Origin: an uncultured Heliomicrobium sp.
GTDB lineage: Bacteria > Acidobacteriota > Blastocatellia > RBC074
NCBI GenBank assembly: GCA_964603695.1
Contig: CAZRXE010000825.1
Coordinates: 30,642 to 94,641 of the forward strand
Length of the DNA stretch: 64,000 bases
Direction of reading: 5' to 3'
Shown here: positions 6,778 to 55,349 of the stretch, one piece after another
Numbering within the stretch: the stretch's first letter is position 1
How the letters are laid out: every line of letters begins with the position of its first letter
Translations under genes and position numbers: made by a program
The notes under the pieces: model-generated
What the model was told of the DNA's origin: nothing
Seen by the model: the letters and a program-made list of their open reading frames with translations, nothing else
The model's database searches: none

Positions 6778-9769
<2,992 letters not shown>

Positions 9770-21076: not shown

Positions 21077-22783
21077 TCAGGCAGGCTGTTTTTTCAACCT
21101 GCGCAGCCGGTTAAAGACAGGGGATAGCTGCGCTTGCAAGTTGCGCCGCTCGTCTTCGCTGTGAAACCCGCGATAAAGCAGCGCCGCCACCAGCACGACG
21201 TAAACCACACCACACACCGCCAGCACAGGCAGAATCTGCCAGCGTCCCGTGCCCGCCCACACCAACGCTGGACGCGCCAGCCAGGCACAGAGGAATCCAA
21301 CGAAATACGGAGCAACACCCGGCACAAGCACTTGTCGTGTGTAGACGCTCATCCGCAAACCTAGATAACGATTGGTGAACGCCTGATAGAACAGCGCGCT
21401 CAGCACCATGCTCAACGCCACCGCCACGCAAATGACGATCACCGTTTTGCCGAACCAAACAAATCCCAGCCCGACTGTCAGTGCCACCAGCGCCAATTGC
21501 GTGCAGGGGTAAAACAATTCGCGCGACGGTTTGCCCGCGCTGCGATGAAAGGCTGAAGCCGGCCCGGTTAGTTCGTTCATCTGATACGGCAGACAAACCA
21601 GCGACAAAATCAGCGAAGCGGTTTGAAACTTCTCGTCCGCGCCGATCCAGGCCGCCAGCACCGGCGCGGCAAAGGCGGCCAGAAAGCCTAACACCGCGCC
21701 CATCATCATGTTCAGGTAGCGCGCGCCGCGCAGGTACAACGCCACGACTTCGTTGTGTTTTTCCAGGCTTTGCATCTGCGCCATGGCCGGCAGAAAAACG
21801 CTGTTCATCGAAGCCGGCATCTGGCTGGCCATGACGGGCAGCTTTTCGCCCACATCGAGCAAACCCGTCGCCTGCACGCCAATGAACACGCCCGCAATCA
21901 GTTTTTCGACCGAATACAAAAACATGCCCATCAACCCCGAAAGCTGGACGATGGCCCCGTAGCCGTAAAACAACCGCAACATCGCCCGGTCGAAATAACG
22001 CGGCCCCAGCGACAATCCCGGCATGGCGCGATAGCACAAAACCACATACGCCGCCGTCGCAAACAGGTAACGAATGACAAACGCCCAGAGCAGCGCATAA
22101 ATCCCGAATCCGCCAATGAGCAGGCCAACAATCAACAATGCTTCCAGGCAGTACGAAATCACCCAGACCACATTTTGTTTGGTGATTTGCTGCAACCCGC
22201 TCAGCACGTAAGCGAACGCCCCGAAGCTGAGATCGAGCATGAAGGTCGCCGCCGTTCCGAACATCAGCACAAATGCCGTTTGCCGCTGCGCTTCCGGTAC
22301 GTTCAGCCGCACAATGAACGACGGCAGCACAAACCAGAGCGTCGCCAGTAACACCAAACAAACCGCCGACACTACCGCCAGCCCGGTCGAAAGCAGCCGA
22401 TTGATTTTTTCTTGCTCGCCGTGCGTGTGGTATTCGGCAATGTAGCGCACGTAAACGTTGGAAACGCCGAACGCGCTCATTCCCAGATAGCCGATCAAAA
22501 TGAAGCAACTGGCCCAGATGCCGTATTCGGCCAGCGACACGTAACTGAGCGTCAACGGAGGCAGAAAAAATCGCGTGGCCATGTAAAACACTCGCGCCAC
22601 CAGATTGGACGAGACGTTTTGAAACAACGCTTTTTTTCGCGCTGCCTTGCCGTCGTCGCTGTCTTGCAGAACGGGCGCAGGTTGCGGCGTGTCTTCATTT
22701 GAAGCCGCGATGGAATCGGCCTTTGCGTTCATTTCATCACCTGTTGATAGAGCCGTGAGGCTGCTTCGATTTTGGCATCCCAC
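21077..22783 (-). CDS. Polysaccharide biosynthesis protein, Wzx-like flippase (PST/MOP family).
   Basis: 568 aa, about 12-14 predicted TM helices. It lies among the glycosyltransferases of a Wzx/Wzy-type locus. Confidence 0.75.
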   Translation of the reverse strand: MGCQNRSSLTALSTGDEMNAKADSIAASNEDTPQPAPVLQDSDDGKAARKKALFQNVSSNLVARVFYMATRFFLPPLTLSYVSLAEYGIWASCFILIGYLGMSAFGVSNVYVRYIAEYHTHGEQEKINRLLSTGLAVVSAVCLVLLATLWFVLPSFIVRLNVPEAQRQTAFVLMFGTAATFMLDLSFGAFAYVLSGLQQITKQNVVWVISYCLEALLIVGLLIGGFGIYALLWAFVIRYLFATAAYVVLCYRAMPGLSLGPRYFDRAMLRLFYGYGAIVQLSGLMGMFLYSVEKLIAGVFIGVQATGLLDVGEKLPVMASQMPASMNSVFLPAMAQMQSLEKHNEVVALYLRGARYLNMMMGAVLGFLAAFAAPVLAAWIGADEKFQTASLILSLVCLPYQMNELTGPASAFHRSAGKPSRELFYPCTQLALVALTVGLGFVWFGKTVIVICVAVALSMVLSALFYQAFTNRYLGLRMSVYTRQVLVPGVAPYFVGFLCAWLARPALVWAGTGRWQILPVLAVCGVVYVVLVAALLYRGFHSEDERRNLQAQLSPVFNRLRRLKKQPA

Positions 22784-32611: not shown

Positions 32612-32950
32612 TTATTCGCGAAACGCCGCCAGCGCTTCTTCGCGGGTGTTGTAAATGTCAAAGACGCGATGCATGCGCACCAGTTCAAACAGCGCCCGCA
32701 CGGGTTTCTGCATGCCGGTCAGTTTCAAATCACCGCCGCCAGCGTTCAGTTGTCGCAAACAAGACAGGATTGCGCCCAGGCCGGAACTGTCCACGAATTT
32801 CAATCCGCTCATATCGAAAATGACTCGCGCCTTTCCGTTCAGTGCGGGCAGCACGTCGCGCTTGAATTCTTTGGCATTTCCCGCATCCAGCGATTCGACT
32901 GGAATCTGAAAAATCGTCGTGTTCTCGACGGTTTCAAATGTTGCTTCCAT
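32612..32950 (-). CDS. STAS-domain anti-sigma-factor antagonist (SpoIIAA/RsbV/SypA-like).
   Basis: 112 aa. 'LDAGNAKEFKRDVLPALNGKARVIFDMSGLKFVDSSGLGAI' contains the conserved phosphorylatable Ser in the 'DSSGLG' context. The ATG at 32950 follows 'GGAGG'. Confidence 0.8.
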   Translation of the reverse strand: MEATFETVENTTIFQIPVESLDAGNAKEFKRDVLPALNGKARVIFDMSGLKFVDSSGLGAILSCLRQLNAGGGDLKLTGMQKPVRALFELVRMHRVFDIYNTREEALAAFRE

Positions 32951-35021
32951 GAATTCCTCCATCAATGGTTTTGAATAAAGAAATGGTGTGACGCCCCTGG
33001 CGATCCGTTTCGTAAACGACCTTGTCCACCAATTCTGAAATAATGAACAGGCCGAAGCCGCCATCTTTTGAACCATCAAAAGTCGGTTCCGGGGCCGTTG
33101 CCGGATCGAAGGGCAAGCCTTGATGACGAATGACAAAACTGATCTGGTTTGCCTCTGTCGAACTAAAAAGCTGTATCGGTTGATCTTCCTGCTCTCGATA
33201 CGCGTGTTCCATGACGTTGGCGACCGCTTCATTAACGGCCAGTTCCAACTCGCTGATAACTTCTTCTCCAACCTCTGGGCAGGCTGTTAGGCAGGCTTGC
33301 CGTACGAAATCGCGGCACAGGGTCAGGCTTCGCGGATCGCTCAGCAGGCGCAGTTCCGCCAGTGGAGTAGGATTGGCTTGTGCCAGGACGCGCACGGCCA
33401 CACAGGTCAGGTCATCGCCCAGAGTTTCGCGGCCTGCGAAAGCCAGCACAGTTCGATGCACATCGGCAACAAGCGATTCGGGATCAAGCCTGCAATTACG
33501 CCGGAGCATTTCCAGCATTCGTTCTTCACCGAAAACTTCGCCGTCGGCATTGGTCGCCTCGGTCAATCCGTCCGAGTAAAAAAAGAACAGATCGCCCGGC
33601 ACCAGCGGATACGTGGATTGCTCGTACCTTTCATCCTCAATAAAGCCAATCGGCAGATTGACGCCTTTCAGCAATTCATAGGCGTATGCATCAGGACGAC
33701 AGCGCACTGCGGCGGTGTGTCCGCAATCTACAATTCGCACCTGTTGCGCGGCCAGATCAAAGCGCGCGTAACAAAGCGTCACGAAACTTTCCAGGGTGAT
33801 GAGTTGATGAACAACTTCTTCATGCACGCGGGCGACGATTTCATGCGGTTCCGGCAGGGTTTGTTGCCCGGTCGAGAAAAGCTGGTTCAAGGCGCGTTGA
33901 AAGGCACTTTTAGTGGCTGCGCCGACCAACGCCGCCGGAATGCCTTTGCCCATTACGTCGCCATTGATGATGTCCAGACAGTTCTTGTGCGGCTGAATGA
34001 ATTCATAAAAGTCGCCGTCAATCATCCGCGAAGGAACCGAAAGCACGGCGACTTGCAGGCCGGAAAACGAATCCGGGATTTTTCCGCGCAATAGCATTTG
34101 CTGGATTCTGGAGCCGATCTCGATTTCCTGGCGCAACCGTTCGCTTTCCAATTCCGTGCGGTGCAGCCGTTCGTTTTCGATGATAATCGCTGATTGAGTG
34201 GCCAGAGCGGACAAAAAACGCATGTCGTGCGAATCAAATTCGCCGCCGACCTCTTCCTGCCAGACCACGAGGATGCCGAGGGTTTTCAGGCCGGTGGTCA
34301 GCGGCACAATGGCCACATTGCAGGCAACGGACAACTCCGGTTCCAGGTCGGGTTGCGCGGCAATGCGGTCCCGGCCATTTAACAACAGCCCGTTCCTTTC
34401 CGCAGTGACTTTGCCCAGCAAGCCGCCCGCAATCGAACGCGGGATCAGGTTTTCCACGCCCTGCGCCATCGGATGGTAATTCCCGTCCCGTTCCAGCCAG
34501 AGTACGGCCTTCAACCCGGCGCGATAAGACGTGGCGCGGTGCAAAATGCGCGGCAGAAATTCCAGCGGCTTAATCAAGGAATTCAGGTCTGTGCTGATTT
34601 CATAAATGGCTTCCAGGCTTTCCCAACTGGCACTCAGTTCATCCAGCAACATCTCTTCCTGTTGTTCCAGCCCCGCCTGCCGGTCAAGCAGCACCAGTAA
34701 CTGTTGGACGGAGGCGAACAGCGTTGGTTGCGATTCCGGCGCGCAAACCAGCAATTGTCCTGCACCACATTTCAGTGTCTGACAGGTTCGATTTGCCGGA
34801 CAGGCTTCGATCACGCAATCCGGCGTCAAATCTTTTTGAGAAGAGCAGGGACAAAACGCCCCGCGAGCCAACCAGATTGGCAGTTGACCAACGCAATAAA
34901 CCAAGCCGGTACTGGCTGCCTGAGCAAACGGCACAATGACTTTGTGCAATTCGCTCAGCAGTCTTTGCTCAGCAGGGCTGAGAACAGACAGCAGTTCCAC
35001 GGCTGGGCCAATCGTTGTCAT
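32934..35021 (-). CDS. Partner-switching enzyme fusion: Cys-rich N-terminal region, GAF domain, PP2C (SpoIIE-type) phosphatase, and a C-terminal RsbW-like GHKL serine kinase.
   Basis: Eight Cys in residues 43-93. PP2C motifs 'GDFYEF', 'GDVMGKG', 'FFFYSDGLTEA'. C-terminal HATPase_c 'LAVNEAVANVMEHAY', 'GGFGLFIISELVD'. Confidence 0.8.
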   Translation of the reverse strand: MTTIGPAVELLSVLSPAEQRLLSELHKVIVPFAQAASTGLVYCVGQLPIWLARGAFCPCSSQKDLTPDCVIEACPANRTCQTLKCGAGQLLVCAPESQPTLFASVQQLLVLLDRQAGLEQQEEMLLDELSASWESLEAIYEISTDLNSLIKPLEFLPRILHRATSYRAGLKAVLWLERDGNYHPMAQGVENLIPRSIAGGLLGKVTAERNGLLLNGRDRIAAQPDLEPELSVACNVAIVPLTTGLKTLGILVVWQEEVGGEFDSHDMRFLSALATQSAIIIENERLHRTELESERLRQEIEIGSRIQQMLLRGKIPDSFSGLQVAVLSVPSRMIDGDFYEFIQPHKNCLDIINGDVMGKGIPAALVGAATKSAFQRALNQLFSTGQQTLPEPHEIVARVHEEVVHQLITLESFVTLCYARFDLAAQQVRIVDCGHTAAVRCRPDAYAYELLKGVNLPIGFIEDERYEQSTYPLVPGDLFFFYSDGLTEATNADGEVFGEERMLEMLRRNCRLDPESLVADVHRTVLAFAGRETLGDDLTCVAVRVLAQANPTPLAELRLLSDPRSLTLCRDFVRQACLTACPEVGEEVISELELAVNEAVANVMEHAYREQEDQPIQLFSSTEANQISFVIRHQGLPFDPATAPEPTFDGSKDGGFGLFIISELVDKVVYETDRQGRHTISLFKTIDGGIHGSNI

Positions 35022-35461
35022 TGTTTACTTACCTCCGCCACTTCAGTAGCAGAAATGGGAATTCGCGGCGGAATGCCTCCCGCTGCCAGTTGATTGAGCA
35101 GCGATGACGGCGCAACGGGTTTTTCGCAGTGCAAATTGGCTCCGGCCTGCAACATCTCTCCAGCGCGTTCCTCGAACGAGCGCGCCGATAAGACTGCAAT
35201 GAACAGATGTTCATAACGAGTTTGCGCTCGCAAGTATTGCAAGACATCCAGGCCGGACAGTTTGGGCATAACCAAATCCAGCAACACTGCATCAGGCTTA
35301 AATTGTTCAACCTGCGCCAGCGCTTCTTCACCGTCAGAAGCGACACAGACTTCATAGCCTGCTTTTTTCAGGACAAATTCCAAAAACCTGGCAATGTGAC
35401 GTTCGTCATCAACAACCAGCACACGGGCTGCGCGCAAAGGACTGATCGTTATTGCTTGCAT
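35018..35461 (-). CDS. Stand-alone response-regulator receiver (REC) protein.
   Basis: 'RVLVVDDERHIARFLEFVLKKAGYEV', 'DAVLLDLVMPKLSG', 'EKP'. 4-bp overlap with the downstream phosphatase-kinase gene. Confidence 0.8.
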   Translation of the reverse strand: MQAITISPLRAARVLVVDDERHIARFLEFVLKKAGYEVCVASDGEEALAQVEQFKPDAVLLDLVMPKLSGLDVLQYLRAQTRYEHLFIAVLSARSFEERAGEMLQAGANLHCEKPVAPSSLLNQLAAGGIPPRIPISATEVAEVSKQ

Positions 35462-36099: not shown

Positions 36100-37482
36100 T
36101 TACGACAAAGTTCGGCGAAACCTGTAAGGTAAAACTTGAGCCATCAGGCCAGTCGCAGCTTGTGTTGTCGTGGATTTTGTTTCCTTCCCCCAAAGCAGAT
36201 AACCTTCCGCCCACCCGGTCAGCAGGAAAAAGATAGGGATCAACTGATTGCCCATAAAAACCGTGGCGATGGAAAAGAGAATCACCCAGTAAATACCCAG
36301 CAAAGTGAAATTGAGCGAGCTGCCGGGCGGATACGAGGGCGTTTCGTTCATGCCGCGCCAGAACAATCGTCCCATAAACCAGATGAAGATCGCGAGAAAC
36401 AGACCCAGCGCCAGCAATCCGTGCATGAGCGCCAGCAGCAGGTAGTAATTGTCAATTGAAGTCATGCCATCTACCTTGGGCCAGTAGTTCCGTCCCCAGC
36501 CAAACACACTTTTTTGCAAAGCAATGTCCAGGTATTTATCAATCAATTCCTTGCGGTAGGCCGCTGATTCCTGGGCAACGGTTTTCGCTCCTGCGCGGCC
36601 CACCGAAACGTATTGCCAAAACGCAATGCCTATGGGCGTGCCGATGACTACCAGCGTTACCAAAATCACCGTGACTGTTTTCCAGCGATTTTTTTGCCTG
36701 CCGATGGCCGTGACCACTGCGCCCAACACACCACCAATCCAGGGGCCGCGTACCATCGTCATCACTACGCCGCTGAGAATTCCTAACGTAATCAACCGCG
36801 CCTTGCTTACAAGTTTAATAGGGTGAAACCTTTTGAATTGCGGTTCCCAATAACCTGACCATTCCAGCCATCTTTGCAAACGATAGGCAATAATCAGAAT
36901 AATGCCCGCCAAAATGGCGTGTCCGTATGGGCCTGCCACGCGCGCAAAGCCCCAGCGGAAGGTTGTCACCCAACCCGCCCCTTGTCCCGGAAAAAAGCGA
37001 TCCAATATCATTCGCCAGGGAGTGGCCCCCATTTTGAATTCGTAGGCTGAAATCAGCGAAATGATGAACAGCAGCCAGGTCAGCCGCCTGGCGAACTCAA
37101 CGCGCAACCCATTTGGTTCCACCAGGCCTTTGGCCAGAGCATAGGGCAGCGCCACCCAACAGATCATTTCAAACATCAGGTTCTGCGCATCGTTGTACCC
37201 CGCATTCAGGTACTCTGAATAACCCACGGCAAGCGCATACCCGCCAACCAGAATATCCGCAAATGAGAAGCGCCATCGCCTGCCCTGTTGGATAAAGAAG
37301 AACGCAGCAATAGGCAAAATCGCGGACATGCTGAAGGTTGGATCAGGCAATCCTGGCGCAATCCAACGGTAATAGTCCGGCATAAGCAACAAGGTCGGCA
37401 GGTACACGTCAAAAAAGGCATGCCGCGGAGACTTTACCCAGGCAATGTAAATAGCAATCAAGCTTGGTAATAAGGCAATCAT
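36100..37482 (-). CDS. Wzy-type polymerase / O-antigen-ligase-family membrane protein.
   Basis: 460 aa, 10 or more TM helices, a large periplasmic loop, Wzy_C-like region 'YLLLALMHGLLALGLFLAIFIWFMG'. Confidence 0.7.
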   Translation of the reverse strand: MIALLPSLIAIYIAWVKSPRHAFFDVYLPTLLLMPDYYRWIAPGLPDPTFSMSAILPIAAFFFIQQGRRWRFSFADILVGGYALAVGYSEYLNAGYNDAQNLMFEMICWVALPYALAKGLVEPNGLRVEFARRLTWLLFIISLISAYEFKMGATPWRMILDRFFPGQGAGWVTTFRWGFARVAGPYGHAILAGIILIIAYRLQRWLEWSGYWEPQFKRFHPIKLVSKARLITLGILSGVVMTMVRGPWIGGVLGAVVTAIGRQKNRWKTVTVILVTLVVIGTPIGIAFWQYVSVGRAGAKTVAQESAAYRKELIDKYLDIALQKSVFGWGRNYWPKVDGMTSIDNYYLLLALMHGLLALGLFLAIFIWFMGRLFWRGMNETPSYPPGSSLNFTLLGIYWVILFSIATVFMGNQLIPIFFLLTGWAEGYLLWGKETKSTTTQAATGLMAQVLPYRFRRTLS

Positions 37483-37978
37483 TCGTGCCTGCGTTTACCC
37501 AACTCGACGGAGTTGGGAACCGGTAGGTTTTCCCTCGCGTTCATTGTTCCATTGAACTTTTGTGTTGAGATTACGCCCACGGCGATATCTGGAACACCCA
37601 TTTTCTAAACTGAGAATTGCTGTCGTCAAGGTAATTTTTCGTTCTGAATCGCTTGTCAGCGCGGGAATTGTTTCGCAAACTTGTTCACCCAATAACACAA
37701 CTTGGTTTGATTCAGACGACCCTGCAACGCTGCGATACAGGGCTTAACCAAAAAAGACAGAATAATAAACGGTGTGTACTCTTGGATTTTGCGTCAGTCT
37801 TGCAATAAATGGAAATCAGCGCCGGTTGGGATTAAAGCGAGTACTCCGATCAATTGTAGGCCTATACAGCAATTTGCAGGTGTCTGCGGCTTCTTGATTG
37901 GGTGTAACAGGTTTCGAACCTGTCACACCTCTGAATGTGCAGGTCGCACTCGGCTGAAAACCGCTATAAGGAGAAAAC
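37483..37978. promoter_or_regulatory. Divergent AT-rich promoter region between wzy and hnoX2. Contains the palindrome GGTGTAACAGG-N7-CCTGTCACACC at 37896-37924.
   Basis: Imperfect inverted repeat with 11-bp arms, one mismatch, centred about 70 bp upstream of the hnoX2 ATG. SD 'AAGGAG' lies before the ATG at 37979. Confidence 0.4.
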
Positions 37979-38545
37979 ATGTACGGCTTGGTAAACAAAG
38001 CTATTGAAGGATTGGTATGTCAGGTCGCAGGTCAGGACGCCTGGCAGGACATTAAGCGGGTCGCAGGAATAGACGTGGACTATTTTATCAGTATGAATCC
38101 GTATCCTGATGACGTGACTTACAAGCTGGTCGGCGCGGCAAGCCAGGTACTTGGCTTGCCAGCCGAAGACATCTTACAGAAATTTGGTGAATACTGGATT
38201 TTGTACACCGGGCAAGAAGGCTACGGGGATTTGTTGACACGCTCTGGGCGAAATTTGAAAGAGTTTCTGATGAACCTGGACAACATACATGCGCAGGTGG
38301 GATTAAGCTTTGAAAAGCTGCAACCGCCGTCGTTCCGCTGCACGGAAGTGGACGACAATTCATTAGTCCTACACTATTATTCGGCGCGCCCGGGACTTGG
38401 CCCAATGATCATTGGTTTATTGCAAGGGTTGGGCAAAATGATGAATACGCGCGTTGAAGTCGCCTACATACTCAATCGCGCTGAGGGGGCAAGCCACGAC
38501 GAATTCCTGGTTCGCTACAATGCAATCAACAGTGAGGTGACTTAA
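37979..38545 (+). CDS. hnoX: H-NOX sensor protein, sGC-beta1 / Nostoc type.
   Basis: 'MYGLVNKAIEGLV' canonical start. Proximal His in 'LDNIHAQV'. 'PSFRCTEVDDNSLVLHYYSARPGL' matches sGC beta1 '[25 protein letters not shown]' including the Y-x-S-x-R motif. Confidence 0.9.
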   Translation: MYGLVNKAIEGLVCQVAGQDAWQDIKRVAGIDVDYFISMNPYPDDVTYKLVGAASQVLGLPAEDILQKFGEYWILYTGQEGYGDLLTRSGRNLKEFLMNLDNIHAQVGLSFEKLQPPSFRCTEVDDNSLVLHYYSARPGLGPMIIGLLQGLGKMMNTRVEVAYILNRAEGASHDEFLVRYNAINSEVT

Positions 38546-38550
38546 TTTAT

Positions 38551-41500
38551 ATGGGTGAGCCGCGTTTCGGACTTTCTCCAAAGCATTTCGCGGAGGCATT
38601 TCCATTCCATTTCGTGCTGGATCGCGACCTGCGGATTGTGCAAGCGGGCAAGGCGCTGGAGCAAATCTGCCGGATCAAGCTGGGAGTAGCCTTTTCCGTT
38701 GCCTTTTATATTGTCCGTCCCAATCTTCACCCTACCTTTGAAGCGATTGGTGACCGACAAAATACGCTGTTTTTGTTGCGGCCAAATAGTGTCCCCATTC
38801 AATTAAAGGGCCAATTCCTGAAAACGGATGCAACGCTCATTTTTCTCGGCTCGCCCAAAATCACTGAACTCAGGGAATTGGATGAACTGGAACTGTCGTT
38901 GATTGATTTTCCCGTGCATGATTCGACCACGCACTATCTGCCGTTGCTGCAAACTTCCAAAATGGCCTTGCGAGAGGCAAATAACCTGGCGGAAATGTTG
39001 GCCAAACAGCGTGCGGAACAGAGCCGGATTAATAGCGAACTGACGGTGCAATTTGAAGTCACGCGGGTTTTGGAAATCGCCGCCTCGCTCGAAGATGCTA
39101 TTCCCAGATTGCTAAGCGCGATTGGCGGCGGATTGGATTGCGGGGTCGGCGAGTTCTGGCAGGTGGATGAAGCAAAGGGGCGGCTTTACTGCGTTGAAAT
39201 GTGGAGCCAATCGCCGGAAAAACATGCGGCCTTTGCACCGGGAACACAGCATTTTAACTTTGCAAAAGGCGAAGGCTTACCAGGTATTACCTGGGAATGC
39301 GGGGAACCTGTTGGTTTTGAGAATGTGACTACCAACCCACGATTTTTACGGGCGGAAGCGGCTCAGGCTGCCGGACTACAAAGTGCTTGGGCGTTTCCTT
39401 TGCAAAGCGGAGGCGACGTGTCAGGTGTGATGGCATTTTACTGCGCTCAGTCTCTCTACTCTGATGAGCGGCTCCAGGCGCTGCTTCGAAACCTCAGCAG
39501 CCAGATTTCACAATTCATTGAGCGAAAACAGGCCGAAAAAGCCTCGCGCGAGGTTGAAACCCGGTATCGCGTGGTCGCCGAAACCGCTTCGGATGCCATT
39601 ATTACGCTGGACCAGGAAAGTCATATTTTGTTTGCCAATCAGGCCGTGGAGCGTATTTTCGGCCATTCTCGCGAATTCCTGATCGGTCAGAAAATCACCT
39701 GTCTGATGCCGAAGGAAATGCAGACCGCGCACAATCGTGGCATTACACGCTATCTCAGGATCAAAAAAAGGCACATTTCGTGGAGCGGGGTTGAAGTGTG
39801 GGGACTGCATCGCGATGGGCACCAGATTCCGCTTGAAGTTTCCTTTTCCGATTACGTCCTCAAAGATCAGCATTTGTTCACAGGTTTTGTTCGTGATATT
39901 TCGCAGCGCAAGCAGGCGGAAGAGCAGTTGCGCGCGGCCAATTCGCGGCTGGCCGCGCTACTGTCAAACTTACAAGACGGCATTCTGGTCGAAGATGAAG
40001 AGCGCCGCCTCGTGCTGGTCAATCAGGAATTCTGCCGCATCTTTGGGATTGAAGCTTCACCGAAGGCCATGGTGGGCGCAGACTGCGCCCAAGCCGCCGA
40101 AAATCTGAAAGGGATTTTTGCCGATTCTGCGCTGTTTCTTTCGCGCATTACAGCGATCCTGGCTGAGCGTCAAGTCGTCGTCAATGAAGAGATTGCACTG
40201 CTTGATGGACGAACGCTGGAACGCAATTACGTGCCGATTTTCGCGGGCGAGATTTACCGAGGACATCTGTGGTCATACCGCGACATCACAACTCGAAAGC
40301 GCATTAAAGAAGAACTGAAAGAGGCCAAAGATTTAGCTGAAAGTGCCAATCTGGCGAAGAGCCAGTTTCTGGCCAATATGAGCCACGAAATTCGCACGCC
40401 GATGAATGCAGTCATTGGCTTGACCGGGCTGTTGCTTGATACGGAATTAAACGCCCAGCAGCGCGATTACCTGCAAACGATTCGCAGCAGCGGCGAGGAC
40501 TTGCTGACGATCATCAATGACATTCTGGATTTCTCGAAGATCGAATCGGGCCGGCTCGAATTAGACTGGCATCCCTGCGATCTACGCCTTTGCCTGGAAG
40601 AAGCCCTGGACTTGCTCGCCACGCGGGCCGCCGAAAAGAAACTGGAGCTTGCCTGCGTGATTGAAAGCGGCACGCCCGCGCACGTGGTCACGGATGCGAC
40701 TCGTTTACGGCAAATTCTGGTCAACCTGCTCAGCAACGCCGTCAAATTCACCGAAGCCGGTGAAGTGGTGGTTCAGGTGCTGGCAGAACCGCTTGACAAC
40801 GGCCAATACGAAATCCGTTTTTCGGTCCGAGACTCTGGCATAGGCATTCCGGCAGAGCGCATGGACAGGCTGTTCCGTTCGTTTTCGCAAGTAGACGCTT
40901 CGACAACACGCACGTATGGCGGCACGGGTCTGGGACTGGCCGTCTGCAAACGACTGACGAAAATGTTGGGCGGCAAAATCTGGGCGGAAAGCGAATTCGG
41001 AGCCGGCTCGACCTTCTTTTTCACCATTCGCGCGGAACCGGCCGCGCCGCTCAATCCACCTTCCGAACAAGGCGCGGCTGAGTCTTTGCGCCACAAACGT
41101 GTGCTGGTAGTGGACGACAATGCGACCAGTCGTCTGATTCTGCGGCGTCAGATGCAGGATTGGGAAATGCTGCCGCGCGTGACCGCTTCAGCCCACGAAG
41201 CGCTGAGCTGGATCCGCGCCGGGGAAACATTCGACGTGGCGCTTCTGGATATGCGCATGCCGGAAATGGACGGATTGCGGCTGGCCTCACTAATTCAGGC
41301 CGAGCGCGGGAACTCACTGCCCATTGCCATTTTCAGTTCCATCAACCGCCGCGAATTGGAAAACGAACGTGATGAATTGGCTGGCGCGACTCTGCCAGAA
41401 GTGGCCGGTGTGTTGACCAAGCCGATCAAGTCTGGCCAGTTGCGCACCTTGTTGCTGAACATCCTGGCCAAGAGTTCGACCGCCGCCAAACCCTTGCTCG

Positions 41501-41922
41501 CTCCACGCCCCGTTTCCGCCAGCCCCAAGTCGCAATCGCGACTGCGCGTGCTGGTGGCGGAAGACAATATCGTCAATCAACGAGTGGCAGCTCTGATGTT
41601 GCAAAAACTGGGGTATGGGGCCGATATCGTCGGCAACGGTCTGGAAGCTTTGGAAGCCCTGCGCCGCCAGCCCTACGATATCGTCTTGATGGATTTACAA
41701 ATGCCTGAAATGGACGGCATGGAAGCCACCCGCCAAATTCGCGCCCAAAGTGCGGCCTGGAAACAGCCACGCATTATCGCCCTCACCGCCAATGCCATGA
41801 GAGGCGACCGGGAATTATGTCTGGCAGCGGGCATGGACGATTATCTGAGCAAACCCTTGCGGCTCGAAGATCTGCAAGCCGCGTTGCGGCGTTGCAGCGA
41901 GACGCCTTATAGCGATTTGTAG
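38551..41922 (+). CDS. Hybrid sensor histidine kinase with N-terminal HNOBA (H-NOX-associated PAS-like) domain. Domain order: HNOBA, GAF, PAS, PAS, HisKA, HATPase_c, REC, REC.
   Basis: 'FPFHFVLDRDLRIVQAGKAL', 'LKGQFLKTDATLIFLGSP', 'LIDFPVHDSTTHYLPLL' parallel the sGC beta1 HNOBA 'FPFHIIFDRDL', '[20 protein letters not shown]', 'LSDIPLHDATRDLVLL'. The PAS/HisKA/HATPase core is paralogous to the 6776-9769 kinase. Start is 5 nt after the H-NOX stop. Confidence 0.85.
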   Translation: MGEPRFGLSPKHFAEAFPFHFVLDRDLRIVQAGKALEQICRIKLGVAFSVAFYIVRPNLHPTFEAIGDRQNTLFLLRPNSVPIQLKGQFLKTDATLIFLGSPKITELRELDELELSLIDFPVHDSTTHYLPLLQTSKMALREANNLAEMLAKQRAEQSRINSELTVQFEVTRVLEIAASLEDAIPRLLSAIGGGLDCGVGEFWQVDEAKGRLYCVEMWSQSPEKHAAFAPGTQHFNFAKGEGLPGITWECGEPVGFENVTTNPRFLRAEAAQAAGLQSAWAFPLQSGGDVSGVMAFYCAQSLYSDERLQALLRNLSSQISQFIERKQAEKASREVETRYRVVAETASDAIITLDQESHILFANQAVERIFGHSREFLIGQKITCLMPKEMQTAHNRGITRYLRIKKRHISWSGVEVWGLHRDGHQIPLEVSFSDYVLKDQHLFTGFVRDISQRKQAEEQLRAANSRLAALLSNLQDGILVEDEERRLVLVNQEFCRIFGIEASPKAMVGADCAQAAENLKGIFADSALFLSRITAILAERQVVVNEEIALLDGRTLERNYVPIFAGEIYRGHLWSYRDITTRKRIKEELKEAKDLAESANLAKSQFLANMSHEIRTPMNAVIGLTGLLLDTELNAQQRDYLQTIRSSGEDLLTIINDILDFSKIESGRLELDWHPCDLRLCLEEALDLLATRAAEKKLELACVIESGTPAHVVTDATRLRQILVNLLSNAVKFTEAGEVVVQVLAEPLDNGQYEIRFSVRDSGIGIPAERMDRLFRSFSQVDASTTRTYGGTGLGLAVCKRLTKMLGGKIWAESEFGAGSTFFFTIRAEPAAPLNPPSEQGAAESLRHKRVLVVDDNATSRLILRRQMQDWEMLPRVTASAHEALSWIRAGETFDVALLDMRMPEMDGLRLASLIQAERGNSLPIAIFSSINRRELENERDELAGATLPEVAGVLTKPIKSGQLRTLLLNILAKSSTAAKPLLAPRPVSASPKSQSRLRVLVAEDNIVNQRVAALMLQKLGYGADIVGNGLEALEALRRQPYDIVLMDLQMPEMDGMEATRQIRAQSAAWKQPRIIALTANAMRGDRELCLAAGMDDYLSKPLRLEDLQAALRRCSETPYSDL

Positions 41923-42240: not shown

Positions 42241-43512
42241 ATGTACGAAAGAACAATTAAACCTCAATTGTTAAAGGCTTTATCGGATACACCGGTCGTT
42301 TTGCTCAACGGAGCGAGGCAGACTGGCAAAAGCACACTAGCGCGAATGTTGTCGGACACGCATCCGGCACAGTACGTTACGCTGGATGACGCTTCGACTT
42401 TGGCGGCGGCGCGGTACGACGCGCAAGGTTTCGTGGCGGGGTTTGGCGGGGCGATCATTCTTGACGAGATTCAGCGCGCACCGGAATTGTTTCTGGCGAT
42501 CAAGGCAGCAGTGGATCAGGACAGGCGGCCGGGCAGGTTTTTGTTGACGGGTTCCGCCAACGTCATGCTGTTGCCTGATTTATCTGATTCGCTGGCCGGG
42601 CGGATGGAGATTTTGACGCTCTGGCCGTTTTCACAAGGCGAGTTGGAAGGCGTTCAGGAAGATTTTATTGACAGGCTTTTCGGCGATGAGTTCAAACCAG
42701 CGGTGACGAGCGTTTTGGAACGCGCGCAACTATTGCAGCGAATTCTGCGCGGCGGCTATCCGGAAGTGTTGATGCGCGCGGAGGAAGACCGCCGCAATGC
42801 CTGGTTCGGAGCGTATCTGACGACCATTCTTCAACGCGACGTGCGCGACCTGGCAAATATAGAAGGGCTGACGGCGCTTCCCAGATTGTTGGCGCTGCTG
42901 GCGACGCGGGCTTGTTCACTGCTCAACCTGGCGGACATTTCGCGCGGAACGGAAATCGCGCAAACCACGCTCAAACGGTATCTGACTTTGCTTGAGGCGA
43001 CTTACCTGGTGACGCTCAATCCCGCCTGGGCCTCCAATCTGGGAAAGCGATTGGTCAAAGCGCCTAAATTGATGCTCAACGACACTGGATTACTGGGCTA
43101 TCTGTTAGGGCTGGGCGTGGATCGTTTGATGAACGACGGCAACTTATTGGGCGGCTTGCTGGAAAACTTCGTCGCCCTCGAATTGAGAAAGCAAATCGGC
43201 TGGAGCCGCACGCGCCCGCAGATGTTTCACTTCCGCACGCAGAACGGGCAGGAAGTGGACATCGTTCTGGAAAACAGAAGAGGCGACATTGCCGCCATCG
43301 AAGTCAAAGCGGGTGCCAGCGTCAACAGCGCGGATTTTAAAGGATTGCGCGCCCTGCAGGAAATCGCCGGAGAACGTTTCAAACGGGGCGTTCTGCTGCA
43401 CACCGGAACTGCCTCCATTCCCTTTGGCGAAAACCTGTTTGCGTTGCCGGTTTCGGCTTTATGGCAAAGGCAGGATTCCCATTTGTCCTTTACTCAAGAC
43501 ACGGCAAATTAA
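42241..43512 (+). CDS. AAA+ ATPase with DUF4143 (COG1373 family).
   Basis: Walker A 'LLNGARQTGKSTLARML'. 423-aa length. C-terminal DUF4143-like region 'LLHTG'. Confidence 0.75.
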   Translation: MYERTIKPQLLKALSDTPVVLLNGARQTGKSTLARMLSDTHPAQYVTLDDASTLAAARYDAQGFVAGFGGAIILDEIQRAPELFLAIKAAVDQDRRPGRFLLTGSANVMLLPDLSDSLAGRMEILTLWPFSQGELEGVQEDFIDRLFGDEFKPAVTSVLERAQLLQRILRGGYPEVLMRAEEDRRNAWFGAYLTTILQRDVRDLANIEGLTALPRLLALLATRACSLLNLADISRGTEIAQTTLKRYLTLLEATYLVTLNPAWASNLGKRLVKAPKLMLNDTGLLGYLLGLGVDRLMNDGNLLGGLLENFVALELRKQIGWSRTRPQMFHFRTQNGQEVDIVLENRRGDIAAIEVKAGASVNSADFKGLRALQEIAGERFKRGVLLHTGTASIPFGENLFALPVSALWQRQDSHLSFTQDTAN

Positions 43513-43514
43513 GC

Positions 43515-43979
43515 TTACTTGCGTTTGCCTGGAACCCAATCAGGCGATAGCTCTACATTCAATCGTGGACATCGCCACAACCACGTCTGCACCTGAATGA
43601 CCCTGGCAACCCAAATGACCAAGCCTTGTGCTTTGACACGTAACTCATCGGCCTGGGCTTGTCCCAACGGACACGGTCGCTCGACCAAATGCTCATGCAC
43701 CGTCTGACAATGCTGACCGCTGTCATCCAGCCAGTCCCGTACCGTGCGTTCGTCGAGCCGGAAGGCGACGACAATCGCTGGCACCGGACAACTGTGCGCT
43801 AACAACGTGACGACACGCTCCAGTAGTTCGGCTTCTTTTTGCCGCCGGTAGAAGATCGTGCCTGTGGTCGTGCTGAACGTCTGACAGACATCGCGGCGCT
43901 CTTTCCCGAAATGTTGCCTCTGTGGCTGAGAAGGAATAGATCTGGCAAGGTCAGCCAAGTGCTTGTCAGCAGCCTTCAA
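43515..43979 (-). mobile_element. Truncated IS-family transposase gene (N-terminal 154-aa fragment only).
   Basis: 'VPAIVVAFRLDERTVRDWLDDSGQHCQTVHEHLV...GQAQADELRVKAQG' resembles the N-terminal HTH region of IS4/IS701-like transposases. No DDE domain follows. The ORF ends 3 nt from the ATPase stop. Confidence 0.4.
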
Positions 43980-47859: not shown

Positions 47860-50349
47860 ATGAAATCTATCCCGACACTCGTAGCAGCCGCGCAGCTCTC
47901 GCGTGGCAACGTTGCCAATCACTTGCTGCAAGACCTGCGCTTTGGCGCGCGAATGTTGTTCAAACAACCTGGCTTTACGCTGGTTGCCGTCGTCACTCTC
48001 GCGCTCGGCATCGGCGCGACGACGGCGTTGTTCAGTGTCGTCAACGGCGTGCTGCTGCGTTCGCTGCCGTATCGAGACCCGGCGCAGTTGATGATGATTT
48101 CAATGTACGGCAAGCAGGACAACGCCGCGCCGACGGTGTCCGGGCCGGACTTTCACGATTTCCGCGAGCGTAGCCGCGCGTTTGCCGGGTTCGCGGGAAT
48201 GCTGGCGATCACGGGGACACTGACGGGCGACACTCTGCCGGAGACGGTGGATTTGGGCATTACGACCTGGAATCTGTTTCCGCTGCTGGGCGTCGAATTG
48301 GCGCAGGGCCGCAACTTCACGGCGGCGGAAGATGTCGCCAACGGCCCCAAAGTCGTCGTCATCAGCCACGGTCTGTGGCAGCGGCGGTACGGCGCGCGTG
48401 CTGATTTGATCGGCCAAACGATTCTGGTGAACGATGAACCGTGGCAGGTGATCGGCGTGCTGCCGGCGGATTTCAAATTGCATCTGCCGCCCGACGCGCA
48501 TCGCTGGAAAGACAAGCAGCCCGATTTGTGGAAGCTGATGCAGCGTGATTTTTCGGCGGAGGAACGCGGCCTCAATTACATGACCGCGCTGGGCCGCCTG
48601 AAATCGGGCGTTGCGCTGACGCAGGGACAAGCCGAGATGGACGGCATCGCCGCGCAATTGCGCGCCGAGCACACAGAGTATCAGGACACCCATTTGCGGA
48701 TTCGCGTCGTGTCGCTGCAACAAAAGATCGTCAGCGGTGTGCGGCCCGCGCTGTTGGTGCTGTTGGCGGCAGTCGGTTTCGTGTTGCTGATTGCCTGCGC
48801 CAATGTCGCAGGGCTGTTGCTGGTGCGCACGCTGGCGCGCGGCAAGGAACTGGCGATTCGCGCGGCGCTCGGTGCAACGCGGGCGCGGCTGATGCGGCAG
48901 GCATTGACCGAAAGCTTATTGCTGGCTCTGTGCGGCGGCGCGGCGGGTTTGTTGCTCGCGTTTTGGGGCGTGCGGCTGTTGCATTGGCTCAAGCCCGCGA
49001 ATTTGCCGCATCTGGAAAATGTGACGATCAATTGGCGCGTGCTGGCCTTCAGTCTGGCGGCGTGCGTGTTGACGGCGTTGCTGGCGGGATTGGCTCCGGC
49101 GCTCAGGCTCTCGCGCCCGGATTTGCAGACGGCGCTCAAAGAAGGCGGTAAGACTTCCGCCGCGCCGGACAGTCGCAGCTTGCACAACGTGTTCGTGACG
49201 GTGCAGATGGCGTTGTCGTTGCTTTTGTTGATCGGCGCGGCGCTGCTGATGCGCAGCTTTGCGGCGCTGCAAAAAGTGCAACCAGGCTTTCAAACGGAAA
49301 ACGTGCTGACGTTTCAAATCAATTTGCCTTATGCGCGTTATGGCGTGCCGCGCAATGCCGGCTTCTTTCAGCAGCTTGAAGCGCGCCTTGCGCGGCTGCC
49401 CGGCGTGATGGCGGTCGGCACGATTTCGCAACTGCCGTTCACGGGCAAAGGCTACGGCACGGGGTATTCGTGGGATGAGCCGTCCGCGCGCGACGATCTG
49501 TCGGCGGACTGGCGCTTCATCACACCGCCGTATTTGCAGGCGACCGGTACGCGCCTGCTGGCTGGTCGCTGGTTCACCGAGCAGGACGATTCGCAGCATC
49601 CGCGCGTCGTGATCGTGGACGAAACGCTGGCGCGCAAAGCCTGGCCGCATGAAAGCGCCATCGGCAAACGCCTGCTGGTGGGCGATTCGACGCCGCCTGT
49701 ACCGGTCTGGATGGAAGTCGTCGGCGTGGTCGAACACACGCAGAACCACGCGCTCGGCGTGCCGGGGCGCGAACAGCTTTACATGCCCTATGCGCAAAAA
49801 CCTGTCGTGCCGTTGATGAACGTCGCCGTGCGCACGACCGTGCCGCCGCTCACACTAACCAAAGCGATAGAGCAGGAAGTGCAGGCGCTCGACAAAAACC
49901 TGCCCGTCAACAATGTGCGCTTGCTGGAAAGTTACGTGGCCGACGCGCTGGCACCCGCGCGCTTCAGCCTGACATTGATGGGCGTGTTCAGCACCGTGGC
50001 GCTCGCGCTCGCGGCCATCGGCGTGTATGGCGTGATGGCATACGCGGTCAGCCGCCGCACGCAGGAAATCGGCGTGCGGCTGGCGCTGGGCGCGCAACCG
50101 GCGGACATCCTGAAGTTGATGATGCGGCATGGATTGACGTTGGCGTGCTGCGGCGTTGCGCTGGGCCTGACGGCGGCTCTGATTTTTACACGCTGGCTGG
50201 ACAGTTTGTTGTACAACGTGGGCGCGCGCGATCCGCTGACGTTCGGCGGCGGAGCAGTTGCGCTGATCGTCGTGGCGCTCGTGGCGTGTTGGATTCCGGC
50301 ACGACGCGCGACGAAAGTTGATCCGCTGATTGCGCTTCGCACTGAATAG
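47860..50349 (+). CDS. ADOP-family MacB/FtsX-like ABC permease with no cognate ATPase, paralog 1.
   Basis: '[46 protein letters not shown]'. Two FtsX-like 4-TM modules. C-terminal '[13 protein letters not shown]'. Confidence 0.85.
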
Positions 50350-50358
50350 GAAAAAACT

Positions 50359-52782
50359 ATGCAAACCCTCTGGCAAGATCTGCGCTACGGCGCGCGAATG
50401 TTATTCAGGCAACCCGGCTTCACGCTGATTGCCGTGGTCACACTGGCGCTTGGCATTGGCGCGACGACGGCGCTTTTCAGCTTCGTTAATGGCCTGTTCT
50501 GGCGCGCCTTGCCTTACCGTGACGACGCGCGGCTGGTGACGCTGGGGCAGAGCAATCGGCAAACCGGCGTCGCACGCGAAGGCGTTGCGCCCGCCAACTT
50601 CCTGGATTGGCGAGCGCAGGCGCAGTCGTTTGAAGCACTCGCCGCCGCCGAACAATTTGGGTTCACGCTAACGGGCGTCGGCGAACCGGAAGTCTTTCGC
50701 GGCTGGGTGGTGACGAAAGGCTTCTTCGAGATTTTGGGAACGACGCCGGTCGCAGGCCGGACGCCGTTGCCGCGGGAATACGAACCGGGGAACGCGCAGG
50801 TCGTCGTGCTCAGTCATGGGTTGTGGCAGCGCCGCTTCGGCGGTGATCTACAAGTCATCGGGCGGCGGTTCACGTTCAACGACCAGCCTTTCACTGTCGT
50901 CGGGGTGATGCCGCCGGAGTTTCAGTATCCGCCTGGCCGCGAGGCGTCAGGCCTTGAACTGTGGGCACCGCGTCTTGACCGTCCGAGCGATCCGCAAATG
51001 CGCGGCGGCAGCCTGTTCCGTGTCATTGGGCGCTTGAAAGCCGGCGTCGCGCCTGAGCAGGCGCAACAAGAGATGAAAGGCATTGCCGCGCGTCTCGGTC
51101 AGCAGTATCCGCAAACCAATGCGGAAGTCGGCGCGGTTGTAGTGTCGTTGCGCGAACAACTGGTCGGGCACGTCCGGCTGGCTTCGTATGTGTTGCTGGG
51201 CGCGGTCAGTTTGGTGTTGCTGATTGCTTGCGCCAACGTCGCCGGATTGCTGATGACGCGCACGGCTGGGCGGCAACGTGAGTTTGCCTTGCGCGCCGCT
51301 TTGGGAGCGGGAAGCGGACGGTTGCGGCGGCAGTTACTGACGGAAAGTTTGTTGCTCGCGCTGCCCGGCGGGTTGCTGGGTACGCTGTTGGCAAGCTGGT
51401 TGATGACGGCGATGCTGGCGCTCAGCCCCGCCAATCTGCCGTTGACGCAAATCCGGCTTGACTGGCGTGTGCTGCTTTTCGCGCTGGGCATTTCCGTTTT
51501 GACGGCGGTGGTTTTCGGTTTGGCTCCGGGTTGGCAGGCAGCGCGCACCGATCTGCAAATGGCGTTGAAAGAAGGCGGGCGCACAGAAACCGCCGGACAC
51601 GGAAAGCAGCGGCTATGGCAAGCTCTGGTCGTGGCGGAAATCGCGATGGCGTTGATCGTGCTTACCGGCGCCGGATTGCTCGTTCGCAGCTTCAGCACCT
51701 TGCTCAATACCGATCCCGGTTTCACCGCTGCCGAAGGGCTGGCGTTGGAGATTCAATTGGGTCGCCGTCCCGCCGCCGAGCGTGTGGTTTTCTTCGATCA
51801 AGTGCTGGAAAAAGTGTCTGCGCTGCCGGGCGTCGAAGCCGTTGCGGTTTCCTCCGCGCTGCCCTTTCACGATAACCAGGTTCCGCTGCTGACTACACTC
51901 AGTCTGGCTGATCGTCCCGCCGCGTCCAATGGCAATGAACCGGCGGCGTATCTGATTCGCGTGACCGCAGGGTATTTTCGCGCGCTCGGCATCCCGCTGT
52001 TGCAAGGCCGTTTGTTCGCGCGGGAAGACCGGGGCGAGTCTGCCCCCGTCGCGCTCATCAATCAAACGCTGGCGCGTCGTTACTGGCCGAATGAATCTCC
52101 ACTGGGACGCAAGTTTTCGTTTACGGCGTCAGGACAAACCATGACGGCGGAGATCGTCGGCGTCGTCGGCGCGGTGCGGCCTACGGGTTTTGACAGCGAA
52201 CCGCGCCCGGAATTTTATCTGCACTACCCGCAATCGCCTGCGCCGCTGGCGACGCTGTTTGTCCGCACCGCCCACGCTCCTGCCTCGTTATTGCCCGGTG
52301 TCAAGGGGCGAATTCGAGAAGTGAATCCGCAGCAGGTTTTCCTGAGCGTCAACACGGTCGCACAACTCGTGGAGAAAACGCTGGCCGAACGGCGCTTCAA
52401 TCTGCTATGGCTCGGCGCGTTTGCGGCGCTCGCGCTTATTCTGGCAGCGATTGGTTTGTACGGCCTGCTCAGTTTTTCGACCGCGCGACGCACACAGGAA
52501 ATCGGTGTGCGTCTGGCGCTCGGCGCGCAGCCTGCCGATGTTTTGAAACTCGTCATCCGCGAGGGACTAACACTGGCTCTGATCGGCGTGGCCGTGGGAT
52601 TGGTCGCCGCCGCCGGATTGACCCGGCTGATGTCCAGTTTGCTCTTTGGCGTCAGCACTACTGACCCGCTGACGTTTGCAGCCATTGCGGTGTTTCTGCT
52701 GTTGGTGGCGCTCGTCGCTTGTTATCTGCCCGCGCGTCGCGCCACGAAGGTGGATCCAATGATTGCGCTTCGCTGTGAATGA
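50359..52782 (+). CDS. ADOP-family permease, paralog 2.
   Basis: '[35 protein letters not shown]'. C-terminal '[13 protein letters not shown]'. 10-nt spacer from paralog 1. Confidence 0.85.
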
Positions 52783-52886
52783 TGAACGCCGAACGATGGA
52801 CGCGGAATCATGGAAGCTGTGCGCCGACGAATGGGTTTTATTCATCGCTCATCGTTCATCCTTCCTCGTTTTTTTGGGAGAACTTT

Positions 52887-55340: not shown

Positions 55341-55349
55341 GAAAAATCT

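Follow-up and report, generated by a model that had tools for sequence, protein, structure and literature searches.

The locus described here raises the question whether a bacterium outside the cyanobacteria carries the sensor half of soluble guanylate cyclase (sGC), divided between two proteins and joined to a histidine kinase in the place of the cyclase, and whether such an arrangement is unusual. It lies in a 64,000-nucleotide stretch of contig CAZRXE010000825.1 (assembly GCA_964603695.1), the whole of which is called the window below, and consists of two adjacent genes. The first encodes H-NOX2, a stand-alone heme nitric oxide (NO)-binding protein of 188 residues, and the second HK2, a hybrid sensor histidine kinase of 1123 residues. 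A first-pass annotation of the DNA had read the pair as a split sGC-like sensor and had thought it a rare find. Both open reading frames (ORFs) lie at the positions and on the strand it had given, and the homology holds: a β1/Nostoc-type H-NOX protein stands before a true HNOBA kinase that has no cyclase domain. The rarity does not hold. In the activation of sGC, the step from H-NOX to PAS domain is one of those that are less well understood. Split bacterial pairs, in which the partners are separate proteins and the kinase output is easily assayed, are attractive experimental models.

H-NOX2 and HK2 as a split sensor

H-NOX2 matches the PF07700 family with an E-value of 4.4e-52, its residues 2-161 lying on positions 1-161 of the 163-position profile. 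In a search of the Protein Data Bank (PDB), Nostoc Alr2278 is matched at 1e-65 and sGC β1 at 1e-37, whereas the H-NOX structures of Shewanella and Thermoanaerobacter (Tt) appear at 1e-7 to 1e-5. Identity amounts to 54% with Alr2278 over a trimmed alignment, to 39% with human β1 (the query being identical to PDB 5MNW, residues 1-188) and to 21% with H-NOX1, a second H-NOX protein of the window. The stretch PSFRCTEVDDNSLVLHYYSARPGL of H-NOX2 is aligned with a 25-letter stretch of β1, and the block PSFRC...LHYYSxRxGL occurs in both. In a neighbor-joining tree of 34 H-NOX sequences, which was rooted on H-NOX1 and has weak deep support, human β1 is placed amid bacterial sequences of the sGC type; H-NOX2 forms a clade, with 98% bootstrap support, with two Blastocatellia bacterium proteins and the H-NOX proteins of three related loci (L050-L052). 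H-NOX2 belongs to the Nostoc/sGC β1 clade and not, as might have been the case, with the H-NOX proteins of facultative anaerobes.

The residues of H-NOX2 that correspond to His105, Tyr135, Ser137 and Arg139 of β1 are His104, Tyr133, Ser135 and Arg137. Pro117 is also kept, as is Cys121, the equivalent of β1 Cys122. At the distal position the alignment places a hydrophobic Met143, which matches Met144 of the Nostoc protein and Ile145 of β1, in contrast to Tyr140 of Tt H-NOX. The heme ligand, the YxSxR motif and a hydrophobic distal residue are invariant among the H-NOX partners of the loci discussed below, wherever the aligned segment reaches them. Because it has no distal hydrogen-bonding tyrosine, H-NOX2 is predicted from its residues to be a heme sensor that should exclude O2 and take NO or carbon monoxide (CO).

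The N-terminus of HK2 is a true HNOBA domain, homologous to the PAS domains of sGC and of the Nostoc kinase STHK. It scores 83.4 bits against PF07701 (curated cutoff 23.4; E=2.1e-23), and with the first 210 residues as query the best match in the PDB is the H-NOXA domain of Nostoc punctiforme STHK (2P04, 8e-16), followed by sGC β1 (4e-13) and then α1. The motifs to which the first-pass annotation had drawn attention, FPFHxxxDRDL, LKGQ and PxHDxT in the kinase and the PSFRC block in H-NOX2, do align with β1, far beyond chance: AFPFHFVLDRDL of HK2 lies opposite AFPFHIIFDRDL of β1 in the first of them, LKGQ is common to both proteins, and FPVHDST of HK2 is aligned with IPLHDAT.

The predicted fold agrees. 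An AlphaFold2 model of residues 1-170, made from an input alignment of eight sequences (mean predicted local distance difference test score 81), has a five-stranded PAS-like core (residues ~10-112) and then a single long helix (125-169). When the model was compared with the PDB by Foldseek, all 23 matches at E<=1e-3 were to sGC β1 or α1, to the Nostoc STHK PAS domain or to the Manduca α PAS domain; the top matches were β1 chains, and the part of the sGC chains that was matched is the PAS domain plus coiled-coil. On 2P04 the model superimposes with a root-mean-square deviation of 1.4-1.7 Å (template-modeling score 0.87-0.91, 39-40% identity). Generic PAS domains, such as those of PpsR, phytochromes, NifL and DosP, enter the Foldseek list only from E=4e-3, and for the HK2 N-terminus generic PAS domains score at least four orders of magnitude worse in E-value. 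Because the close matches are all to sGC, STHK and Manduca, the domain is not a generic PAS. The hydrophobic residues that form the PAS dimer interface of sGC, β-Ile208, Phe213, Phe217, Leu320 and Leu322 (PMC8196705), have their counterparts in Leu8, Phe13, Phe17, Ile97 and Leu99 of HK2.

Pfam gives the full order of HK2 as HNOBA-GAF-PAS-PAS-HisKA-HATPase_c-REC-REC. The kinase boxes are all in place (SHEIRTP at 611, with the phosphorylatable His612; NLLSNAVKFT at 725; DSGIG at 761, the G1 box; GTGLGL at 791, the G2 box), and both receivers are intact, with acidic pocket, phospho-acceptor aspartate and lysine. Pfam found neither an Hpt nor a nucleotide cyclase domain in the protein, which stops 11 residues past the second receiver. 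Its NCBIfam matches are all below cutoff (BarA, 446 bits against 890; TorS, 428 against 676; ArcB likewise), so that HK2 is best described as a generic hybrid kinase with no named equivalog, and, since it has no Hpt domain, it is not of the tripartite BarA/ArcB/TorS type. A recent truncation, in which an Hpt domain would have been lost to insertion of the DUF4143 ATPase gene that lies downstream, was considered and set aside: there is no remnant, and a homologue (L054) has the same end. An architecture that ends without Hpt is thus a stable variant of its own and not a truncation.

The two genes are separated by 5 nt, and a GAGGTGA sequence ahead of the HK2 start is contained in the 3' end of the H-NOX2 gene. 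For these reasons H-NOX2 and HK2 probably constitute a two-gene, translationally coupled operon. H-NOX2 has its own ribosome-binding site, AGGAG, 8 nt before the ATG.

Among known systems the operon is most like that of Nostoc (Alr2278 of PCC 7120; 2P04/2P08 of N. punctiforme), in which an sGC-type H-NOX gene likewise stands directly before a kinase that begins with HNOBA, and whose heme ligands and residues of the PAS dimer interface recur in the window proteins. Three papers (PMC2576301, PMC2828450, PMC8196705) describe the Nostoc H-NOX as part of a histidine-kinase operon, and the PAS dimer of sGC as having the STHK H-NOXA structure for its template. The Nostoc-type partner kinases, at ~490 residues, consist of HNOBA, HisKA and HATPase only, whereas HK2 adds a GAF domain, two PAS domains and two receivers; the hosts also differ, the window being probably acidobacterial. 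With sGC itself (β1; PDB 6JT0/6JT2, 6PAS) the pair shares a homologous sensor module of H-NOX, PAS (HNOBA) and long helix. In the window H-NOX and HNOBA are carried by two different polypeptides, and the output is a kinase phosphorelay in place of a class III cyclase. Further, sGC is an α/β heterodimer, whereas HK2 is presumably a homodimer, and β-Asp106 is replaced by Ala105 in H-NOX2. The pair is thus not an sGC, since the cyclase domain is missing and the sensor parts are split.

Distribution of the gene pair

The claim that such a system is rare is contradicted by the databases. When 1.84 billion representative sequences were searched exhaustively by phmmer with HK2 residues 1-170, the HNOBA homologues fell into 1,813 clusters at 50% identity with E<=1e-3, and into 785 at E<=1e-10; this search superseded word-indexed ones with the HNOBA region, which had returned 1 and 7 matches. 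Among the best 150, which range from 159 to 1,588 residues, HNOBA stands at the extreme N-terminus in nearly all. By local domain assignment with Pfam spot checks, HNOBA is alone in 26 (some of them fragments), is joined to a kinase in another 26 and to a kinase and REC in 17, and is joined to GGDEF or GGDEF-EAL in about nine; many add PAS, GAF, a second REC or Hpt. The added GAF domain and two receivers that had been singled out in HK2 are indeed there, but they are not unusual, for GAF is the next domain after HNOBA in about a quarter of these 150 proteins, and a pair of receivers is found in many of them. HNOB and HNOBA domains in GGDEF proteins were also recorded in a census of 2022 (PMC8846402).

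The gene neighborhoods tell the same story. One genome per GTDB species was scanned with a four-sequence HNOBA alignment, and 40 HNOBA loci were found, about 30 of them cyanobacterial; because the scan was limited to AFPFHFV-like or DF[AP][IV][HY]-like motifs, this number is a biased lower bound. The loci outside cyanobacteria come from metagenome-assembled genomes (MAGs) of Candidatus Acidiferrales (Acidobacteriota), of a deltaproteobacterium and of another proteobacterium, and from two Verrucomicrobia, three Planctomycetota and two Sedimenticola. In 39 of the 40, the gene directly before that for HNOBA encodes an sGC-type H-NOX protein with 39-60% identity to H-NOX2. The pairing thus extends over at least five phyla (Cyanobacteria, Acidobacteriota, Planctomycetota, Verrucomicrobiota and Proteobacteria), and it holds whether the partner is a kinase, a kinase-REC, a GGDEF protein or a stand-alone HNOBA. 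HNOBA is the only domain common to all these partners, which more than anything else speaks for it as the domain through which H-NOX acts. The H-NOX/HNOBA pair is therefore a widespread cassette with kinase, GGDEF/EAL or stand-alone HNOBA partners, not a cyanobacterial curiosity, and its spread and near-obligate pairing support an ancient bacterial origin for the sensor half of sGC. No locus nearly identical to that of the window was present among the scanned GTDB representatives; the exact H-NOX2 protein was met only in four short Logan assemblies and one NCBI contig.

Several loci vary the arrangement. In Sedimenticola (L043, match 3965-5590, and L045) the sGC-type H-NOX gene is followed by one for an HNOBA-GGDEF diguanylate cyclase, so that, to judge by the domains, the same sensor head is predicted to have a cyclic di-GMP output instead of a kinase. 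A Verrucomicrobiales MAG (GCA_038126235.1; L005 7452-10814, the same as L013) has three genes, for an H-NOX of 181 residues, an HNOBA-only protein of 159 and a PAS-PAS-kinase-REC protein of 769; here HNOBA is a separate adaptor protein, and the H-NOX gene adjoins the HNOBA-only gene. In an Acaryochloris MAG (L034) and in GCA_039812885.1 (L049, protein P0015) the HNOBA kinase gene is not directly preceded by one for H-NOX; in L049 a MurJ gene upstream and a neighbor with a PatA_N domain suggest a cyanobacterium. The H-NOX match of the Ca. Acidiferrales MAG (L011 3433-3974) lies in two frames that meet near 3630, a frameshift that points to a pseudogene or else to a fault in the assembly. One protein of 996 residues (P0013, on an NCBI contig of 6,418 bp) looked at first sight like a bacterial H-NOX-HNOBA-GAF-GAF-kinase fusion; it was discarded as such, as it has only H-NOX residues 1-93 and not the heme-binding half with the histidine and YxSxR. 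Some 90 low-complexity residues come after this segment, and P0013 probably represents a decayed fusion or an error of gene calling.

Five loci (L050-L054), each with an H-NOX gene upstream of an HNOBA kinase gene, have essentially the same operon as the window. The best full-length relatives, P0002-P0004, are 45-47% identical to HK2 in HNOBA and each follows an H-NOX gene (L050-L052); their order is HNOBA-GAF-PAS(-PAS)-HisKA-HATPase-REC(-REC)-Hpt, the C-terminal Hpt being absent from HK2. A fourth locus (L053) is from an NCBI MAG whose H-NOX is labeled Blastocatellia, and the fifth (L054) from a Joint Genome Institute (JGI) metagenome. The kinase of the latter is 53% identical to HK2 over residues 3-1117, has the same architecture and likewise ends just after the second receiver. 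The H-NOX proteins of the relatives in the 98%-bootstrap Blastocatellia clade are 64-67% identical to H-NOX2, and its nearest named homologues, from Blastocatellia MAGs, are 69% and 64% identical. Relatives and window have in common a glycosyltransferase/Wzy neighborhood: upstream of the pair stand STAS, Wzy_C (59% identical to that of the window) and Hexapep genes in L050, Bac_transf (76%), WecG (58%) and Hexapep (40%) genes in L051, and GT2 genes in L052 and L053. H-NOX2/HK2 is then a fairly ordinary member of a known family, with a sensor array longer than that of the Nostoc prototype and with close relatives already public, and the locus adds no new principle.

The relatives bear also on the host. 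The five permeases at the far side of the window (Table 1), of the family TIGR03434, the acidobacterial duplicated orphan permeases (ADOP), and the Blastocatellia relatives of H-NOX2 indicate that the host is probably an acidobacterium of the class Blastocatellia, so that the placement outside cyanobacteria, first made from the letters alone, is probably right. A local dip in guanine-plus-cytosine (GC) content, to 0.50-0.52 over 34-40 kb, prompted the thought of a recent horizontal transfer from cyanobacteria; because the clade in which H-NOX2 lies is specific to Blastocatellia and has 98% support, a recent transfer is unlikely, a verdict that, with the weak deep support of the neighbor-joining tree, does not extend to older transfer between phyla.

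Signal transfer and output

It seems likely that H-NOX2 and HK2 together make up a phosphorelay sensor that responds to a gas, on the pattern of Nostoc H-NOX/STHK, in which H-NOX2 docks on the HNOBA domain and the output is polysaccharide synthesis. The observed basis of this reading is homology, fold, intact catalytic and heme residues, gene pairing and conserved genomic neighborhood; what we infer is which ligand is bound, that the proteins dock physically, whether the kinase is stimulated or inhibited, by which route phosphate is passed on and what is regulated in the end. H-NOX2 would hold a b-type heme by His104 and a propionate clamp of Tyr133, Ser135 and Arg137, and, like Nostoc H-NOX and sGC, would take NO (and CO) as ligand while excluding O2. 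HK2 would dimerize by its N-terminal HNOBA PAS domain, and H-NOX2 may dock in trans, non-covalently, on the PAS dimer and the helix that follows it, as the β1 H-NOX does in sGC. Binding of the ligand, presumably NO, would alter this contact; the signal could then run down the 45-residue helix (125-169), by way of GAF and both PAS domains, into the DHp helix and modulate autophosphorylation at His612, from which phosphoryl groups would pass to the C-terminal receivers. Because HK2 has no Hpt domain, onward transfer would need one supplied in trans. The final output would be the exopolysaccharide cluster next to the operon, and hence the biofilm matrix.

The docking step draws on the structures of sGC, in which H-NOX packs on the PAS dimer and the coiled-coil, and NO moves helix αF, frees contacts and straightens the helices (PMC8196705). 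One of the contacts, between β-Asp102 in αF and β-Arg258 in the PAS domain, is kept in the window as Asp101 of H-NOX2 and Arg56 of HK2. This pair of positions is Asp/Arg in 38 of 44 H-NOX/HNOBA gene pairs, and both residues have changed in the two Sedimenticola loci (Asn/Thr) and in the three-gene Verrucomicrobial locus (L013, Pro/Leu). Such co-variation is suggestive, and would fit a docking interface.

For the output, control of the adjacent matrix polysaccharide cluster, and hence of biofilm, is the most plausible assignment, because classical H-NOX/kinase systems control biofilm and because the neighborhood is conserved in the relatives; conserved neighborhood is what the assignment is inferred from. 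In Vibrio and Shewanella, H-NOX with NO bound keeps the kinase beside it from autophosphorylating, and it controls biofilm (PMC8738867). These HnoX/HnoK systems resemble the present one in having a stand-alone H-NOX beside the histidine kinase that it controls, with biofilm as output (PMC8738867). They differ in that their H-NOX is of another clade (H-NOX2 matches the Shewanella structures only at ~1e-7) and their kinases, as judged by HK1, the kinase next to H-NOX1, have no HNOBA; the docking surface must therefore differ. H-NOX2/HK2 is thus not of the HnoX/HnoK type, into which the H-NOX1/HK1 pair of the same window does fit. Within the cluster, the stand-alone receiver of the partner-switching module (Table 1) is a candidate phosphoryl acceptor for HK1 or HK2. 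What gives the locus its value is that it plausibly connects NO sensing with exopolysaccharide control in Acidobacteria.

A number of observations weigh against this reading of H-NOX2/HK2. On the output path, downstream of HK2 there is no Hpt remnant and no response regulator, and the REC-GerE regulator that comes right after the kinase in two of the three near relatives examined first (L050, L051) has no counterpart in the window. The polysaccharide cluster is linked to the operon by neighborhood only, since the operon is divergent from it and the two are not co-transcribed. Scans for promoters and terminators gave nothing above chance. At the docking step, the Asp/Arg positions have counter-examples in which one partner alone is changed (Pro/Arg twice, Asp/Asp once), and the co-variation comprises only two or three independent events. 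When sGC is activated, little change is seen in the PAS dimer, whose role in signaling has been called ambiguous (PMC8196705); HNOBA may therefore be mainly a scaffold for dimerization and docking. Finally, a literature search found no functional study of any bacterial H-NOX/HNOBA-kinase pair, and no paper that mentions both H-NOX and Acidobacteria.

The gap in the output path might be filled from within the window. HK1 and HK2 have paralogous cores (46.5% identity between HK2 347-1112 and HK1 61-877), and the only Hpt domain of the window is that of HK1 (~6785-7036); a branched relay by way of the HK1 Hpt is therefore possible. HK2 would then be an accessory branch of the H-NOX1/HK1 relay with no output of its own, its receivers feeding the HK1 Hpt or draining phosphate from it, and two H-NOX inputs would enter a single decision about the polysaccharide cluster that both systems flank. 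It fits this view that, as noted, no Hpt remnant or response regulator follows HK2, and that H-NOX1/HK1 occupies the slot, after Bac_transf, WecG and Hexapep, which in one relative (L051) is taken by the sGC-type H-NOX/HNOBA kinase. Against it, the kinase of L054 also has no Hpt, and no second H-NOX system lies within +/-10 kb of it, so that a kinase of this kind can apparently do without both an Hpt of its own and a partner like HK1 next to it; moreover, a stand-alone Hpt could be encoded anywhere in the genome. On balance an accessory role for HK2 seems unlikely. A fuller version, in which two H-NOX sensors of different clades around the ~27-kb cluster form one branched phosphorelay, HK2 passes phosphate to the HK1 Hpt or competes for it, and integrated gas or redox inputs of different affinity set matrix production, is speculative and rather improbable. 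If it were true, the locus would be the first tractable non-cyanobacterial model of H-NOX-to-PAS signaling of the sGC kind with the partners on separate polypeptides.

NO is the expected ligand, and it is quite unlikely that the signal is instead CO, O2 or a redox state (oxidation of heme or thiol). Redox sensing has reportedly been proposed for a heme-free Vibrio cholerae H-NOX, and oxidative activation of H-NOX is said to have been described, which would count in favor of such a signal. The retention of Cys121 would also be in accord with it, and the Nostoc H-NOX has been solved with CO as well as with NO bound (PMC2576301). Speaking for NO are the absence of a distal tyrosine, Met143 standing at the position of Tt H-NOX Tyr140, and the fact that the closest characterized relatives are Nostoc H-NOX and sGC, the physiological ligand being NO at least for sGC (PMC8196705).

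It is very unlikely that HNOBA is a mere dimerization PAS and that H-NOX2 signals to some other partner or to the GAF, PAS or DHp segments of HK2, for, although this would agree with the barely moving sGC PAS dimer of ambiguous role (PMC8196705), with the HNOBA kinases that have no adjacent H-NOX (L034, L049) and with the control by classical H-NOX proteins of kinases that have no HNOBA, such as HK1, it leaves unexplained why H-NOX adjoins the HNOBA gene in 39 of 40 loci, be the partner a kinase, a GGDEF protein or HNOBA by itself, when this domain is all that the partners share, the placing of H-NOX beside the HNOBA-only gene in the Verrucomicrobial three-gene split, and the conserved Asp/Arg contact pair.

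Flanking DNA and neighboring genes

Table 1. Positions in the window of the two H-NOX/kinase systems and of the features around them
Feature	Position	Strand	Remarks
H-NOX2 ORF	37979-38545	+	188 aa, stand-alone heme NO-binding protein, sGC β1/Nostoc type
HK2 ORF	38551-41922	+	1123-aa hybrid sensor histidine kinase
HNOBA/H-NOXA of HK2	38551-39060	+	PF07701; PAS-like core residues ~10-112, long signaling helix 125-169
GAF of HK2	39079-39522	+	residues 177-324; PF13185, E=1.7e-15
Two PAS of HK2	39562-40305	+	residues 338-452 and 471-585; PF00989, PF13426, PF08448; paralogous to HK1
Kinase core of HK2	40354-41034	+	HisKA 602-667, PF00512, E=6e-24; HATPase_c 715-828, PF02518, E=1e-30
Two receivers of HK2	41098-41886	+	residues ~850-972 and 1000-1112; PF00072, two stretches, E=2e-44
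Divergent intergenic region	37483-37978	.	496 bp, between Wzy_C and H-NOX2; contains a palindrome
Wzy_C	36100-37482	-	O-antigen-polymerase-like; divergent from H-NOX2
Partner-switching module	32612-35461	-	in polysaccharide cluster; REC 35018-35461, GAF-SpoIIE(PP2C)-HATPase_c_2 32934-35021, STAS
Polysaccharide biosynthesis/export cluster	10432-37482	-	~27 kb, Pfam; between the two H-NOX/kinase pairs
H-NOX1	9779-10336	-	185 aa, classical clade; PF07700, E=3e-45; best PDB match 6OCV, 3e-47
HK1	6776-9769	-	997 aa, PAS-PAS-HisKA-HATPase-REC-REC-Hpt (Pfam); adjoins H-NOX1; no HNOBA or GAF
Five tandem ADOP permeases	47860-61973	+	~800 aa each; TIGR03434, 905-951 bits each, cutoff 622

The promoters of the operon and of the divergent Wzy_C gene presumably sit in the spacer between them, in which, the scans being at chance level, no promoter was assigned. 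Within it, at a distance of 50 nt from the start codon of H-NOX2, lies an inverted repeat with 13-nt arms, GGTGTAACAGGTT-TCG-AACCTGTCACACC (37901-37929), which could be an operator or a hairpin of the 5'-untranslated region. There is no second copy of it in the window, where 0 matches are expected by chance, and it was not found in the fetched related loci, of which L001-L004 begin too near the H-NOX gene to cover the region. A scan of the whole window found no tRNA and no Rfam family.

On the other side of the operon, HK2 is followed by a gene for an AAA_14/DUF4143 ATPase (42241-43512) and then, on the opposite strand, by a 154-residue ORF with no annotation (43515-43979). This slot (42241-43979) is the one held by the REC-GerE regulator in L050 and L051.

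The polysaccharide cluster that the two H-NOX/kinase pairs bracket encodes glycosyltransferases of the GT1, GT2 and GT4 families, hexapeptide transferases, a Poly_export/SLBB protein, a tyrosine autokinase, Bac_transf and WecG. Three of its large ORFs (16289-18502, 19795-21012 and 21077-22783) have no Pfam match. At its far end, H-NOX1 stands apart from H-NOX2 also in its PDB matches, the best being followed by Vibrio and Shewanella structures, and sGC β1 being reached only at 1e-5.

An ORF that, with 188 residues, might have been the other H-NOX (57882-58448) was ruled out, as it is a DUF4287/DUF5655 gene; it interrupts the run of ADOP permeases. At the opposite edge of the window, a subtilase gene (Peptidase_S8, 47-2272, + strand) encodes a protein with a weak, sub-threshold match to the S-layer-homology (SLH) domain at its C-terminus.

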